This document shows, in pieces, positions 30,075 to 47,105 of a stretch of 64,000 nucleotides of DNA (position 1 is the stretch's first letter; each line of letters starts with the position of its first letter). The notes beneath the pieces were generated by a model that made no database searches, was not told the origin of the DNA, and was given only the letters and a program-made list of their open reading frames with translations. Made by a program: the position numbers and the translations under genes. The DNA comes from Sphyrna mokarran (taxonomy: Eukaryota): NCBI GenBank assembly GCA_024679065.1, contig JAGIQG010000026.1, positions 22,940,001 to 23,004,000 of the forward strand, written 5' to 3'.

Positions 30075-32790
30075 ATCTCTCTTTCTCCCATCTGCCAGCC
30101 CCACTCAGATCCAAGATGACACTGCAGCTTCCTCATCCATCAATCGAATTCAGACCATTCAAATACTAACCCCATTCTGTTCCAAAGCTACTATGAGATC
30201 TTAGTGCTAAAACTCCAGCCTTCATTTTTCTGGCTCTATTCTTATCTAATCATTCTTAACCAGAGAATCACCTGCATTGACTTCCCTTGCAAGGAGTCTC
30301 CCAACATCAGGTTAAAGTCCAACAGATTTACTTGGTAGCACAAGCCACAAGCTTTCAGAGCATTACCCCTTCATGAGGTGAGTGGGATTTCTGTTCTCAA
30401 ACACAGAATACACAAACTCAATGTACAAAATAATAATTGGAAAGCGAGTCTTTACAGGTAATCAAGTCTTAAAGTTACAGACAATAGGAGCGGAGAGAGG
30501 GTTAAACACAGGTTAAAGAGACGTGTATTGTCTCCAGCCAGCACAGTTAATGAGATTTTGCAAGCCCTGGCAAGTTGTGGGGGTTACAGATAGTGTGACA
30601 TGAACGCAACATCCTGGTTGAGGCTGTCCTCATATGTGTGGAACTTGGCCAAGAGTCTCTACCCAGCGACTGTGTTATCATGTGTCATGAAGGCCGCACT
30701 GAAGAACACTTACCCAAAGATCAGAAGTCAAATGCCCCTGACCGCTGAAGTGTTCCCCTGAAGTGAAGAGAACACTTGCCTGGTGATTGTCGAATAGTAT
30801 TCATTCATCCATTGTCATAGCGTCTGTATGGTCTCCCCAATGTACCACTTGGACATCCTTTCCTGTAGCGTATAAGATAGACAACGCTGGTTTAGTTGCA
30901 AGTGTATGTACCACGTACCTGGTGAATGGTATTCACTCGGGAGATGATGGCATCCATGTCAATGATCCAACACACCTTGCAGAGGTTGCTATGGCAGTAT
31001 TGTGTGGTGTTGTGGTCACTGTTCTCCTGAAGACTGGATAGTTTGCTGTGGACAATGGTCTGTTTGAGGTTGTGCAGTTGTTCGAAGGCAAGAAGTGGGG
31101 TTGTGAGGTTGGCCTTGGCGAGATGTTCGTCTTCATCAATGACATGTTGAAGGCTCCAGAGAAGGAAAGGATGTCCTGAGACATGGTACACTGGGGAGAC
31201 CATTCAGATGTTACTAGAACAAATGAATGAACATTGCTCAATAATCACCAGGGAAGAACGTTTTCTTCCTGTTGGGGAACACTTCAGCGGTCACAGGCAT
31301 TTGGCCTCTGATTTCGGGTAAGCATTCTTCAAGATGGTCTCATGACACACAACAGCGCAGAGTCGCTGAGCAGAGACTGATAGCCAAGTTCTGCACACAT
31401 GAGGACGGCCTCAACCAGGATCTTGGGTTCATGTCACATTATCTGTAACCCCCACCACTTGCCAGGGCTTGCAAAATCTCACTGACTGTCCTGGCTGAAG
31501 ACAATACACATCTCTTTAACATGTGCTTAACCCTCTCTCCACCCCCATTGTCTGTACCCTTAAGACTTGATTGCCTGTAAAGACTCGCATTCCAATCATT
31601 ATCTTGTAAATTGAGTTTGTGTCTTGATATACCCTTTTATGAAGAGAACTCCCACTCATCTGATGATAGGGCAGCACTCCAAAAGCTTGTGGGTTGTGCT
31701 ACCAAGTAAACCTGTTGGACTTTAACCTGGTGTTGTGAGACTTCTTGCTGTGCTTACCCCAGTCCAATGCTGGCATCTCCACATCTGAATTCCTTTCCCA
31801 CTCCTGCATAATCCACTGAGTTTTCTCTGGTGTCCCCTGGAGATCTATGCTTACCTGCCTCATATTTCTTACCTGAATACTGCCCCTCAAAGAAACATAT
31901 CAGGTTCAACATGTACACTGGAGACACCCCAACCCTACCTTCCAACAATCTCTCTTGACCCCCTCCACTATCTTTAAATTATCAAACTGCTTCTCTAACA
32001 TCCAATATTGAATAAGTAGAAATTCCTTTCAATTGAACATTGGGAAGACAAAAGACATTGACTTTTGTCCCCATCACAAAGACCATGCCTCTTCTTGGAA
32101 CTGCACAGTCCTAAACCAGACTGTTTTTGATCTTGGTGTTGTATTTTACCCTGAAATGAGGTTCTGATCACAAGGTCCACAGCTACTTCGATTCAGTGCT
32201 GCTCAAACCTTCATCCATATCTCTGTTATCTCTTGGTTTGATGATTTCAACAAACTTCTGGCCAGCCTTACACCTTCCAACCCCATAATCTCTTGGTCTT
32301 CCAAATCTCTGCAAATGCAAACTTGGACCAAGCTGCATTTACTCATCAGCCTTATGCTTGTTAATCTATATTGGTGCTCAGTTAAGTAACTCTTCCATCC
32401 TTGCTTTCAAATCTTTGCTTTCAAATCTCCATAAGACCTCACCCTTCTCTACCTCTGCTACCTCCACCAGCCCAACAATCCTACTAGTCCAACTCCTGGG
32501 TCTTATGCATTCCAAATTTGAACTGCCACACCACTGACAACTGTGCCTTCAGTTACTAATGTCCTAAGCTCAGGAATTCACATCCTAAACATCTCTACTT
32601 CTCTCTTTCTTCCTTAAAGACACTATTTGAAATAGGACCTTTTTTCTAAACTATTAGTTGCTCAGATAACACCTCCTTGGATGACTTGGTGTCAAAATTT
32701 GATTGAAAATACTCCCATGAAGCCCCTTGGGGTGATTTTGCTACATTCAAGATGTTATATAAGTGCAAGAAGTTGTTGTTCACTAAAACG
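30075..32790 (+). mobile_element. Decayed L2 LINE interrupted by the Penelope insertion at 30302-31785
   Basis: TCTTATCTAATC (SYLS-like) before the insertion; CAATTGAACATTGGGAAGAC, CTTGGTGTTGTATTT and AAACCTTCATCCAT after it; L2-like end GTTATATAAGTGCAAG...GTTGTTGTT. Confidence 0.7.
30302..31785. mobile_element. Penelope-like element: two 5'-truncated copies in inverted orientation (GIY-YIG region plus pLTR)
   Basis: Minus arm encodes CHSNLCKVC and VVYLIR...WYIGET (GIY-YIG); 30302-30864 is the reverse complement of 31163-31735; plus arm ends GGCATCTCCACATC; decayed hammerhead cores in both pLTRs. Confidence 0.9.
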
Positions 32791-37425: not shown

Positions 37426-39602
37426 AATTGGAATTGGAATGATTCATAGCAAGCCCTATATAGTTTTTAGTATTCTGCTTATTTACTTTCCATTCTGTGT
37501 GTAGCACATGGAACAAAACATGCCAATAACAAGACTCACTATCTTGTTTTGAACAATTCATTGTAAACTCCGAATGACATCCCTTAGGATCAAACTAATT
37601 GCTTTTTGTTTTCTCAAATCCAATCTATACACAAATACAAAAATAAGATTTCTGGTTTCAGGTTTTTATCTTTAATGTAACCTCAAGAAACAGACTGCAA
37701 AATGTACAGGTCTTAATATGTTAGAACATGCAAATTTTGGTACATTGACAGTATAATGAATTCTGCAGTCATCATAATTTGATCTAATGCAATAAGATCT
37801 CCTACCTGAAGATTCTACTGCAGTAAGAAAAAGTAGCTAGAATTGAGAAGTGATTAGCATATAACAGTTTGTGGCAATCATTCATCTTGTACAAAGATAT
37901 CAGCAATGATCAGTATGACCAGAATCTTGAAAATACTTAACATAAATGACTAATCCAAACTAAGCCTTACACAGATACGGATCTTTTAGTTAATTTACTC
38001 ATCTTTTCATAAGTGAACCTGAAGGGCTGTGAAAACACTGTCGAAGGAAAGACTTAGTTTCATTTCAATAAAAGATGCTGAAGGCAGGATGCTCATTATC
38101 AGAGTGCCTAACACTTCAACTCTGCTGCTGTTCTTGCACATTTGCAGGTTGCAAATGGTCACTAATCTTGAGCATGAAGCCAGAGGGCTGCAGAAAAAGA
38201 TGGTCTGAAACCTCTGATGAAACGCCAGCAAAGTTACACAATGACAACTAAAGCATATTGATGTTGAACTGCTGACAGTGGCAATGTGCTGAAGGGAAAC
38301 TCCAGCAATATTATTAAAATACATTATTGATTGATTGCTATTTACTAGCCAACATTACATGGCTGCTACATTGGTCCTGAAAGGAATAGAAACATGGCAG
38401 ATTTCATTTCAAAGAAAAATATTTTCCAAAATGTCACATAAGTTGATCAAGTAAACTGAGCGATTCAACTCTTGCCCTGAATGTGTTGAAAGGGGTGAGA
38501 AAAATGATTTCCTGAGACACTGTGTAGGAGTAGAGACTCCTGCTTCATCTCGCTCAAATACGTCATTACTAACGAAATGACATGTTAATCATACATCAAA
38601 AACCAGCTTCTTCCAGTATGAAGATTTAAAAATAGATCAATTCTTCATGTAGAATTTCCTTTATGCTGTTATATTCTCAAGGTAACATAATTTAGTAATA
38701 ATGTACATAAATACAACTTCTGGATTCATTATCAGGAGCTTCCCCAACTATGAATAATGATAGCTGATTGTGAGCTGATATGTTAAGCAGCTTCTCAACC
38801 AAAATGCTGCCCATTTCTTTTACTATAAAATCTTGTCATAATAAAATAATTTCAATATCTTCTCAATATTTACTGACCTTAAATATTGTAGCTTGTGGAA
38901 TGAGCCCCAGCTTAGATGATCACATTCCTGCCTCCAAGTCAACAAGTAATGCACATAAGTACGATTCCAAACCCAGCCTCTGCAACCCCCCACCTTCACC
39001 ACCACCACCAAATATCTCGCTGAATGTCAGCCCATTAATTAGGGACCAAAGTTTTGGCCAGTAAGCAGAAGGCCAAAACTTCAGCCCCTAAACAATGGGC
39101 TAACATTTAGTGAGATACTCACAATAGGAATGAAGTGTCTGTGTGCACAAACCCCCACCAACTGAGATCAGCTCCCCCATCCAAGTCAGGTTATCTATTA
39201 TTGTAATTAGAGAAATTTCCTAGAGCATGAACTGCTGGATGCGAAAGCATTGGAATCAATATTTTGTCCTCATATGTACCCAGGGGAACGTGCATTTTTA
39301 TCAGTTCCTGGATATTCCTCCCACCTTGAATAATTTTCCATCTCATTTCTCCTTTTCCCCATTGCTATAAAAGAATGCATTTGTCTGATCATCCCCCAAC
39401 TTCAGTAATAATACCCACTCTGTCTTGCCAATTCAAACACCAGTTCTCTCACACCTCTTCTAACAGAGTACAATTAAGAGTCCATAGCAGATACTTGAAC
39501 TATTATTTCACATCACCAAATTTTTTCCACAGGAGGTAACGATTATTTAAAATGTTAAAAAATGAAGTTGTACAACATTTGTTATGGCTGAGATAAATGA
39601 AG

Positions 39603-39797
39603 TGGAGATGCCAGTGCTGGACTGAGTTAAACACAGTAAGAAGTTTCACAACACCAGGTTAAAGTCTAACAGGTTTATGTGGTAGCAAACATCACTAGCT
39701 TTCGGGGCTTTATCCCTTCGTCAGGTGAGTCTCACCTGACGAAGGGGCATAGCCCTGAAAGCCAGTGGCGGCTGCTACCACATAAACCTGTTGGACT
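39603..39797. mobile_element. Palindromic non-autonomous Penelope pLTR derivative with 10-bp TSD
   Basis: ATAAATGAAG at 39593-39602 and 39798-39807; arms 39663-39729 and 39731-39797 are inverted; sequence matches the pLTR of the 30302-31785 element. Confidence 0.9.
39690..39729 (-). ncRNA. Putative minimal type I hammerhead ribozyme motif
   Basis: RNA CUCAC-CUGACGA-A-GGGAUAAAGCCCC-GAAA-GC-UA/GUGAUG: both conserved core boxes, helix II GGG/CCC, helix I UCAC/GUGA, palindromic AGCU in place of helix III. Minimal hammerheads in Penelope pLTRs are an established feature; activity untested. Confidence 0.65.
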
Positions 39798-41467
39798 ATA
39801 AATGAAGCCAACTGTTTCATAAAGAAATAAACTACCTCTTGTTATCGAATTACAAAACCTCTATTGAGATCCAACAGCATTCAGCATGTTTATTTCTTGT
39901 TGTACTGTTGTCTCCTATCTATTCTATATGGGCCGCCAAATAATCCAAAAGCAAATACAGATAAATCATTGCACAAAATATGCTGAGGAAAAGCCTGTTA
40001 TGAGCAAATGACTTGAAACGTGAACCATTCCTGAATGAGACTTGCCAAGTTCAACTGACACCACACCTCAAATTATAAATCCTCAATTAACAATAGAAAA
40101 TATTGTATCTCTTACAGTGTGAAATCCCTTGTTTTTTTTCCAACAGAAAGCAATAAAATAATACCGTGCTGGGAAGAACGTCACAGGGATATTACAACCT
40201 TTGATGTTTTACACAGTGATCCACCCAGAATTTGTGCACTGCATCCCAGAAATTGTGGACTGCATCCTCAAAGAAAGACCTTTTTTCAAGTCTTGGCAAA
40301 TATTTGTTCCCTCAGTATTGCTACAGAACATATAATGGATTAGCAGTTTGATACCAACTAGTGTGTTAGTTGGGGTAGTCCAGAAACGTATGTAAACAAG
40401 AAGATGTCATTTCCAACTCAGATCAGAATGGAAAGTCACCTCATAGAATAAATGGGTCTTTTGATAAGTTCAGATGTGAACAAAATGGATATTGTCTCTA
40501 ACCTCGAAATTTGAAATGTACTTCACTGCAGAACTGAGAAGCTCTTATTTGCATCCAGTTAGTGCAGTCCCGCTGGAATCAAGGATTGCGCAGGAACATG
40601 AAGTTCCAGGAAAGCAAATGTCCATTAAAATAACTTACACATTAAAAAAAATCAAATTTTACATTTCAATGTGAGATAAAAGTGTTAAAATTTCTACTCT
40701 GGAAATTGTTGCTGTCAACATTTGTAGCTGAATTTTAATATACCCAGGTTCAATATTTTAATGTAAACAAGGAGTGGTTTATTTTAAATGGGTTAATACT
40801 TCAGTTAAAATAGCTGACAAAGAAATGTTACTCTGTACTTCACATTTTAACTTTGTTAATATCAATAGCACTAATTTTTCTTTAATTACGTAGTAGAAAT
40901 GGTCACAGGAGATATTTGTAATTTAGCAGACAATTTTTGACAAGAGCATCTGGTTTAACAACTACAAAATTCTGTGAGTTATGAAAATCTGTTCAATAAT
41001 ACTTTTCATTTGTTCTTATAATCTCATCTATTAGTCAGAATAAAAAATGTGCTCAGAAAGTTTTGGCAGATTAAAGATACATTACAAAGCTAGGATTAAA
41101 ATAGTTTTAAATAGCTGACCTGTAAAATCAAAACTTTAGCACCAAAAAGAATATTTCATTATAATAATGAAGTATTCTCCATCAGTTCCTTGACACATTC
41201 AGATAATATATTTCCATGTGAATGTCACTTGCTACAATTCAACAATGGGACCTTGTCAATGGACCTTGCCCATTATTCATGTAAATGTTTTGCAGTCGCA
41301 CAAGTCTAGTGCAGTATAGTGTACATTGTCATTTATTCACATTACCATTTCAAATAAAGCAGAAAACTTTGTTATGAAGAAACTCTGCAAGCTATTCATA
41401 GTGACAACAGGCTAATATGATGTAAAAAAAGGAATAAGTTAAACAATGAAAGCTAATCATGATGTCA

Positions 41468-42025
<558 letters not shown>

Positions 42026-44707: not shown

Positions 44708-47105
44708 TCCCAAATATTGATTGGAATCTCCCTAGGGTAACAGGTTTAGATGGGGAGGAGTTTGTTAGATGTGTTCAGGAGAGTTTTTTGACACAGTACG
44801 TGGATAAGCCTACAAGAAGAGAGGCTGTACTTGATTTAGTATTGGGAAATGAACTTGGTTAGGTGTCAGATCTCTCAGTGGGAAAGCATTTTGCAGATAA
44901 TGATCATAATTTATGTCCTTTACAATAACATTAGAGAGAGACAGGATCAGACAAGTTAGAAAAGTGTTTAATTGAGTAAGGGGAATATGAGGCTATCTGG
45001 CGGGAAATTGGAGGCTTAAATTGGAAAGAGGTTTTCTCAAGGAAATGTACGAAAGAAATGTGGCAAATTTTCAGGGAATATTTGTCTGGAGTTCTACATA
45101 GCAACATTCCAATGAGACAAGGAAGTTATGGTAGGTTACAGGAACTATGGTTACAAAGGTTCTAATAAATCTAGTCAAGAAGAAAAGAAAAGCTTACAAA
45201 AGGTTCAGAGAGCTAGGTATTGTCAAAGATCTAGAAGAGTATACGGCTAATAGGAAGCATTATAAGAAGGAAATTAGGAGAGACAGAAGGGATCATGAGA
45301 AGGCCTTGGCAGGCAGGATTAAAGAAAACCCCAAAGCATTCTACAAGCATGTGAAAAGCAAGAGGATAAGACGTGAAAGAATAGGAAATATCAAGTGTGA
45401 CAGTGGGAAAGTTTGTATGGAACTGGAAGAAATAGCAGAGGTACTTTACTTCAGTGTTCACTATAGAAAAAGATCTTGGTGGTTGTAATGCAGACTTGCA
45501 GCAGACTGAAAAGCCTGAGCATGTAGATATTAAGAAAGAGGATATGTTGAAGCTTTTGAAAAGTATTAAGTTAGATAAGTTGCTGTGACCAGATGGGATA
45601 TACCCTAGGCTACTGTGGGAGGTGAAGGAGGAGATTGCTGAGCTCTGGCGATGATCTTTTAATCATCAATGGAGACAGAAGATGGGAGGATTGGAGAATT
45701 GCGCATGTTGTTCCTTTATTCAAGAAAGGGAGTAGAGATAGCCCTGGAAATTATAAACCAGTGAGTCTGAACTCAGTGGTTAGTGAGATGATAGAGAAAA
45801 TCCTGAGAGGCAGGATTTGTGAACATTTGGAGAAGTACAGTATGATTAAGAATAGTCAGCATGGCTTTGTCAAAGGCAGATCATGCCTTACAAGGCTGAC
45901 TGATTTTTTTGAAGATGTGATTAAACACATCGATGAAGGAAGAGCAATAGATGTCATATATAAGGACTTCAGCAAGGCTTTGATACTGTGCCCCATGCAA
46001 GGCTAATTGAGAAAGTGAGGAGGCATGGGATCCAAGGGGGCATTGCTTTGTGGATCCAGAACTGGCTTGACCATAGAAGGCAAAGAGTGACCATTGATGA
46101 GTCATATTCTGCACAGAGGCTGGTCACCAGTGGAGTACCCCAGGGATTTGTTCTGAGACCCTTACTCTTTGTCATTTTTATAAATGATTTGGATGAGGAA
46201 GTGGAGGTATGGGTTGGTAAGTTTGCTGATGACACGAAGGTTGAAGGTGCTGTGGACAGTGTGGAGGGATGTCAGAAGTTGCAGTGAAACATTGACAGGA
46301 TGCAAGACTGGGCAGAGAAGTAGCAGATGGAGTTCAACCCAGATAAGTGTGAAGTAGGTCAAATAGGATGGCAGAATATAATATTAATGGTAGGACTCTT
46401 GGCAGCGTGGAAGATCAAAAGAATCTTCGAGTCCAAGTTCATAGGACACTCAAAACAGTTGCGCAGGTTGAAGCTGTGGTTAAGAAGGTATATGGTATAC
46501 TGGCATTCATCAATTGAGGAATTGAATTTAGGAGTCGAGACATAATGTTGCAGCTATATAGGACCCTGCTCAGACCCCACTTGGAGTACTGTGCTCAGTT
46601 CTGATTGTCTCAATACTGGAAGGACATGGAAAACATAGAAAGGGTGCAGAGGAGATTTACAAAGATATTGCCTGGATTGAGAAGCATGCCTTTTGAAGCT
46701 AGGTTGAGGGAGCTCAGCCTTTTCTCCTTGGAGAGATGAAGAATGAAGAGTGACCTGATAGAGGTGTACAAGATGTTGAGAGGTACTGATCGAGTGGATA
46801 GTGAGAAGCTTTTTCCCAGGGCTAAAACGGTTGCCACAAGACAACATATGTTTAAGGTGCTGGGGAATAGGTACAGAAGAGATGTCAGGGACAAGATTTT
46901 CACTCAGAGAGTGCTGGATGTGTGGAATGGGTTGCTGGCAATGGTTGTGGAGGCGGGTTTGATAGGGTCTTTTAAGAGACTGTTAGATAAGTACGTGGAA
47001 CTTAGTAAGGTAGAGGGTTATAGATAAGCTTGATAATCTTTAAGGTAGGGATATGTTCAGCACAACTTTGTGGGCTGAAGGGCTGAGTTTTTCTATGTTT
47101 CTATG
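44708..47105 (+). mobile_element. 5'-truncated CR1 LINE (HER1-like), disrupted ORF2, 7-bp TSD
   Basis: FPNIDW, VDKPTRREAVLDLVL, WRIAHVVPLFKKGSRDSPGNYKPVSL, QHGFVKGRSCLT, SGVPQGFVLRPLLFVIFINDL, KFADDTK, MEFNPDKC; tail TTCTATGTTTCTATG; CAACAAT at 44701-44707 and 47106-47112. Confidence 0.95.

Follow-up and report, generated by a model that had tools for sequence, protein, structure and literature searches.

The palindrome at 39593..39807 in an NFI intron is a pair of head-to-head copies of the hammerhead-bearing pLTR of a Penelope-like retrotransposon (PLE), apparently of the Neptune type. We consider it, with a probability of about 93%, a dead inverted PLE insertion; it is an ordinary decayed scar of a very abundant PLE and not a new self-copying element. 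The window, i.e. the whole stretch of 64,000 nucleotides that was analysed, contains a longer insertion of the same family (1.5 kb, 30289..31786) 8 kb away, with the same layout, in which a tail-less minus arm stands head-to-head with a tailed plus arm, and with a frameshifted, stop-containing GIY-YIG 3' fragment.

The insert is bounded by a perfect 10-bp target-site duplication, ATAAATGAAG, with its left copy at 39593..39602 and its right copy at 39798..39807 on the plus strand, as the first-pass annotation of this DNA had described. The boundaries are blurred because the duplication overlaps the element at both ends: the family's tailed end extends about 6 nt into the left copy, whose last 6 nt (39597-39602) resemble it, and the first 4 nt of the right copy also continue the arm. 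The same annotation had two 67-bp inverted arms meeting at 39730. The centre and the 16 perfect innermost base pairs stand, with 57 of 67 positions complementary around T39730 and arms of 71 nt (39659-39729 and 39731-39801, 85%) given by a repeat finder, but the minus arm is 133 nt long and not 67, since it continues through the PLE 'tail'. This long tailed pLTR arm (133-134 nt, 39597..39730, minus strand) begins 5-6 nt before the hammerhead core and extends as far as the site of the parent's start codon. The tail itself, ~33 nt at 39597..39632 and present on the minus arm only, has approximate limits, with two 3'-end classes among the copies. On the plus strand, the short tail-less arm of 67-71 nt (39731..39801) stops about 25 nt before the usual tail-less end. 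The inversion centre at 39730 is position -6 of the minus arm (arm positions are counted from the hammerhead C3, negative values being upstream) and lies inside the hot zone of arm starts.

A genome search with the element returned 4,337 first-look candidates, of which 40 were scored, with matches at 77-91%. The parent reverse transcriptase matches Pfam PF00078, and a GIY-YIG motif with two internal cysteines could be read by eye in natural parent copies, while a Pfam search of the endonuclease-bearing fragment gave no match. Reverse transcriptase and C-terminal GIY-YIG domain share one ORF, as in EN+ PLEs. Upstream of GIY-YIG the translations contain a linker C-x4-C-x2-C, which agrees with the Neptune/Nematis linker CX2-5CxxC as defined in the available part of PMC8557442, and by this motif the parent is probably of the Neptune type. 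The near-full-length copies L152 and L158 carry pLTR sequence both 5' and 3' of the ORF. In these young copies the end of the tailed arm is the ATG of the ORF, so that the long arm covers everything between a point shortly upstream of the hammerhead and the start codon; ATG or GATG stands directly before the same start in most of the 28 best genomic matches. L152, L158 and L156 are 95-99% alike with long open frames (stretches of 671 and 609 aa), and a 27-nt anchor of this young lineage has 34,277 exact matches in the genome, which together point to recent activity of the family. At the 3' ends of L152-L165, the pLTR around helix II is far more variable than the ORF, with pairing kept. The two longest survey copies, L121:2900-3400 and block B 103425-105515, belong to different lineages and begin within a few bases around the same reverse transcriptase motif, possibly a further truncation hot spot or a chance agreement. 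Independent insertions (L196/L197 and L200/L227) occupy, on opposite sides, a near-identical target site in another LINE-like repeat, which may point to a target preference.

The layout of the family was surveyed by a profile search in six hand-placed (non-random) blocks of 1.264 Mb, one of which includes the window. Among 119 profile matches, 113 arms passed a 3'-end filter and formed 38 head-to-head pairs and 37 unpaired arms; the pairing misses partners more than 1.3 kb apart. Exactly one arm carries the 30-40 bp tail in 36 of the 38 pairs and in 38 of 40 twin-core insertions. The 3' ends of the arms lie at +120 or beyond in 55/112 and at +85 to +101 in 44/112. Target-site duplications, mostly of 10-17 nt, were found in 28 of the 38 one-tail twin-core insertions (one of them probably spurious), so that the 10 bp at 39593..39807 belong to a range of variable lengths. 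The lengths of the two arms are coupled, both being short in 24 pairs, both long in 11 and mixed in only 3 (Fisher p 7e-7). Extrapolated from these 1.264 Mb, the genome would hold ~250,000 arms, ~53,000 short palindromes (34,000-78,000) and ~15,000 short palindromes with both cores (6,000-32,000), the ranges being Poisson limits only. A head-to-head, 5'-truncated inverted copy with a 30-40 bp tail at one end only, together with duplications of 8-10 bp and a pLTR that runs into the ORF start and has TATA- and Inr-like motifs, likewise characterizes the inverted-pLTR EN+ PLE insertions in the available parts of PMC3846280 and Craig et al. 2021 (PMC8557442). In comparison with those, both arms of 39593..39807 are reduced to the leader and the ORF is gone, and the concentrated arm starts and coupled arm lengths reported here are new relative to the same parts of these papers.

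The first-pass annotation had left open whether the palindrome is a distinct mobile unit with a ribozyme on both strands or an extreme truncation of the usual inverted Penelope insertion. The one-tailed head-to-head PLE layout supports the second, and the junctions speak against the first. Copies sharing the junction, to which the annotation had attached weight, do exist, the exact 19-nt centre of 39593..39807 occurring 18 times in the genome, but inversion centres differ among the 28 distinct best genomic matches. An exact-pattern search gave 1,866 twin-core junctions genome-wide (control 0), and the centres of the 40 examined measure 5-30 nt. Of nine other copies with the same 19-nt centre, 5 carry the tail on one arm, 3 carry it on the opposite arm and 1 has no tail; copies with this centre belong to several pLTR sub-lineages. 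The commonest centre, of 6 nt (9 of the 40 examined), sits on a mini-palindrome and occurs with the tail on either side (of 7 young copies, 4 one way and 3 the other) and in different pLTR variants. Recurrent centres in both orientations and in differing variants indicate that junctions are made anew at insertion. A short palindrome copied as a whole, as a non-autonomous retrozyme-like unit of its own with ribozymes on both strands plus a hairpin switch, would account for its tens of thousands of copies, for the duplications that individual insertions own (28/38 examined) and for the recurrence of some centres. It does not account for centres that vary among copies, for one and the same centre occurring with the tail on either side and in different sub-lineages, where both arms are of the respective lineage, or for long insertions having the same layout; moreover, only 7 of 24 short pairs keep both cores, and many are without one or both. 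No inherited junction with inherited ends, as in SINE- or MITE-like units, was found among the copies. Non-LTR retrozymes (Li et al. 2026, bioRxiv 10.64898/2026.07.22.740005) are, in the part of that preprint available to us, likewise non-coding, hammerhead-bearing and derived from PLE pLTRs; they consist of head-to-tail repeats with a hammerhead per unit, and this tandem arrangement is absent from 39593..39807, which is a single head-to-head pair without a fixed unit. We consider the mobile-unit explanation largely refuted and its remaining probability very low. A one-off truncation, as the annotation had phrased the opposite outcome, does not fit either, since the starts of arms are strongly concentrated a short way upstream of the hammerhead, which means that insertions of this size arise again and again.

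Arm starts were analysed in 112 block arms, one tandem duplicate having been dropped. In zones chosen after inspection, 42 stops fall in 2,343 nt of exposure at +10..-31 and 18 in 11,823 nt at -32..-440, a rate ratio of 11.8 (p 6e-20, with the zones set post hoc). Per 100 nt the stop rate is 1.79 at +10..-31, 0.15 upstream and 0.51 downstream. The peak at -12..-4 is a broad zone without a single preferred base, and the young lineage has a second cluster at -19..-22. Unpaired survey arms stop in the same zone as paired arms, and the genome-wide counts, binned by the gap between anchors in steps of 30 nt, are 822, 1,465, 3,712, 2,394 and 763. Motifs upstream were compared with the TATA and Inr consensus and spacing. 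In eight long copies of the lineage of 39593..39807, a TATA-like TTTATAT (exact in 5/8, with one change in 3/8) lies about 30 nt upstream of an Inr-like CCCACT, the A of which is at -6, where the arms of 39593..39807 begin. The young lineage shows the pile-up without a good TATA match. In D. virilis the Penelope promoter is internal and TATA-less according to the available part of PMC2377424. An extra cap-derived G at arm starts, looked for by eye, was inconsistent, and the contigs of four runs over the 5' end of a full-length copy showed no start or end places, as far as assembled contigs can reveal them. Our literature search, with subscription journals, Repbase and supplements outside its scope, found no description of such a pile-up.

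We propose, at somewhat better than even odds, that a single parent mRNA, or more exactly its short 5' leader, served as the reverse-transcription template for both arms of the non-coding insertion. The endonuclease would make staggered nicks, giving the 10-17 bp duplication, and both freed 3' ends would prime at two internal sites, about +92 and +125 from the hammerhead C3, on the 5'-terminal pLTR copy of a single mRNA. One strand would prime at the ATG-proximal site and the other ~33 nt upstream, which would make the tail one-sided. Both cDNAs would run off the RNA 5' end where the start site is predicted, 5-25 nt before the core, and their ends would be joined bluntly or via microhomology into a short palindrome, in which the hammerheads would be passengers. 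Priming on the 3' pLTR instead would make both arms long, e.g. at 30289-31786. The minus arm of 39593..39807 would then correspond to the whole 5' leader of the parent mRNA. The single tailed arm, the clustered starts, the tailed end at the ATG and the coupled arm lengths are in favor of this leader model. The in vitro system of a lizard PLE, PAc Poseidon of the green anole, is similar in several steps, as far as the available part of Frangieh et al. 2024 (PMC11167929) describes it: the protein cuts and extends both target strands, reverse transcription starts at two internal sites that bound and define the tail, and ribozyme cleavage is not required. PAc is a Penelope/Poseidon element with its ORF starting inside the hammerhead, whereas the family described here has a Neptune/Nematis linker and the ATG at the tail end. 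The pile-up in the young lineage that lacks a TATA-like box counts against the leader model, as do the breadth of the pile-up zone and the internal, TATA-less Penelope promoter of D. virilis. One-template copying is visible in younger copies: in the 40 twin-core insertions arm identity is 0.88 within and 0.71 between insertions, and an arm's own partner is best or tied in 23/37 (three short-armed cases left out). The arms of 39593..39807 resemble each other no more than they resemble other copies, so the evidence for one template comes from these younger copies. Arm pairs of mixed lineage, expected from two templates, make up a minority and were rejected as a general rule; block A 244709-244932 looks like one such pair, and a handful of pairs with low rank also belong here.

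The main rival to the leader model, which we consider unlikely by comparison, is that tail-primed cDNA stops, snaps back by short microhomology and is copied to the second nick. Such a fold-back explains equally well that the arms of 14/36 one-tail pairs are nearly symmetric (within 8 nt), even where they stop far from the predicted start, and it agrees with variants being shared by the arms of one insertion and with recurrent centres on mini-palindromes (the 6-nt centre in 9/40, and other self-complementary centres). Junction palindromes are read as self-priming by Arkhipova et al. 2013 in the available part of PMC3846280. However, fold-back predicts that the tailed arm is the longer one. In 11 pairs it is instead the tail-less arm that is longer, against 8 pairs with a longer tailed arm, and the 6-nt centre occurs in both orientations (4 and 3 young copies). 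Fold-back would require frequent later inversion of the spacer. More doubtful still is that the pile-up reflects a stall of reverse transcriptase on a long template, at helix I or a nearby structure, and not the RNA 5' end. The stop rate indeed climbs across the hammerhead (0.24, 0.57, 0.87, 1.16 and 2.99 per 100 nt), but a stall alone leaves unexplained why the rate drops sharply farther upstream than -31 (to 0.11-0.20 per 100 nt), why there is a match to promoter-like motifs and why arms are short or long together. A clear pile-up at the ribozyme cut site was not found either, as only 5/98 block arms stop at +27..+35; a pile-up at +29 was rejected since this bin is no higher than its neighbour. 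A few arms start exactly at the cut site (+29) and an 8-nt centre recurs, and such recurrent starts and centres near the cut site can be attributed to self-complementary microhomology.

As the first-pass annotation had noted, a hammerhead core lies 5 nt inside each arm, with C3 at 39724 on the minus and 39736 on the plus strand. The motif in the sense of NFI, a minimal type I hammerhead at 39692..39728 (minus strand; core CUGACGA from 39724, GAAA, GC-UA), keeps the core, helix I (UCAC/GUGA) and the UA site attributed to it, with a predicted cut between 39696 and 39695, but its helix II is eroded to 3 Watson-Crick pairs. The second motif at 39732..39768 (plus strand) is predicted to be inactive: besides the change of U16.1 to C at 39763 that had been recognized, C11.1 is changed to U at 39756, which had been missed. 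An Rfam covariance search, suggested as a check of the hammerhead, found no family at gathering score in the 64-kb window; the identification as a hammerhead is based on the motif and on covariation across copies. In 104 distinct copies with intact cores, pair 2 of helix I is G-C in 57, A-T in 30 and G-T in 11, pair 2 of helix II is A-T in 38, G-C in 37 and G-T in 24, and the pairing of both helices exceeds all 1,000 shuffles, a comparison that ignores kinship among copies. U16.1 is kept in 101/104 and position 17 is not G in 103/104. With core, helices I and II and compensatory changes present, the family's hammerhead appears conserved as a structure, its helix pairs switching between G-C and A-T across lineages. 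It shares the type I fold, the extra nucleotide after A9, G10.1-C11.1 and the palindromic 15.2-16.2 with the minimal hammerheads of PMC4209133. In that study motif pairs lie 100-700 bp apart on opposite strands and a tandem dimer is necessary for (weak) cleavage; the cores of 39593..39807 are only 11 nt apart and, being on opposite strands, cannot form such a dimer. RNA in NFI sense is predicted to fold into a single long hairpin (-110.9 kcal/mol, z -13.2 against 200 shuffles), which follows from the inverted layout produced by the way the insertion forms. Of the self-silencing hairpin switch suggested in the annotation, the long hairpin remains as a prediction and the switch gained no further support. 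In the NFI pre-mRNA the two arms would pair together and block the ribozyme fold. At 39721-39730 (plus strand) the reverse complement of helix I and the core start resembles a 5' splice site (CAG|GTGAGT), and so does 39739-39730 of the minus strand in NFI sense (CAG|GTGAGA); introns could acquire cryptic donors from copies of this lineage.

The host gene is recognized by the NFI DNA-binding-domain exon at 41473..42025 on the minus strand (PF10524 and PF03165; open frame 42025-41467). The GT of its donor site begins at 41472, at a distance of 1,665 nt from the element, in accordance with the ~1.7 kb given in the annotation. Judged from its divergence, 39593..39807 is an old insertion: its identity to the best full-length relatives is 79-85%, complementarity between its arms is 85% (15% divergence), and 19 of 27 other arms are closer to its left arm than its own partner is. 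A contig from a relative, ~91% alike over 39250-39624, spans the left flank together with the element's left end; one DNA-sized run reaches both flanks as well as this left end, and no contig skipping the whole element, i.e. an empty site, was found in a relative. An intact core on the strand that reads in NFI sense, and the apparent presence of the left end at the orthologous site of a relative, could suggest co-option as a regulatory ribozyme or hairpin. We consider this extremely improbable, because the arms have diverged by 15% and helix II is eroded, the hairpin masks the ribozyme motif in the predicted fold, similar copies occur every 10-20 kb, and presence in one relative speaks for age and not for selection. 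There is no sign of function in NFI. A second palindrome, 480 bp upstream of the element at 39013-39117 (47-nt arms, 83% complementary, 11-nt spacer), is unrelated to the PLE arm and may be a MITE-like remnant. Frames at 45134-46003 resemble what we take to be a CR1/L2-type LINE reverse transcriptase fragment.

In L1 twin priming, two target ends prime on one RNA and the segments that they copy do not overlap; in the reaction proposed here the two primers would share one segment, and a palindrome would result. LTR elements form strong-stop cDNA, a short cDNA running off the RNA 5' end. We tentatively suggest, at somewhat less than even odds, that the ~50,000 stump palindromes are the fossil record of a Penelope 'double strong-stop' reaction, in which a dimeric reverse transcriptase-endonuclease would prime both nicked strands on the leader of a single mRNA, from start codon to cap. 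The single copy at 39593..39807, one old insertion among tens of thousands, matters little and the population matters more. Such palindromes are likely mislabelled as MITEs or as new ribozyme elements, and they would place many long RNA hairpins in introns. How PLE inverted repeats form is named as unresolved in the available part of PMC8557442, and coupled arm lengths, one-sided tails and clustered starts are constraints that can be tested in the existing in vitro system. If the double strong-stop reaction is true, the junctions would map the start sites of each sub-lineage, and the origin of the inverted pLTR and the one-sided tail of PLEs would be explained.
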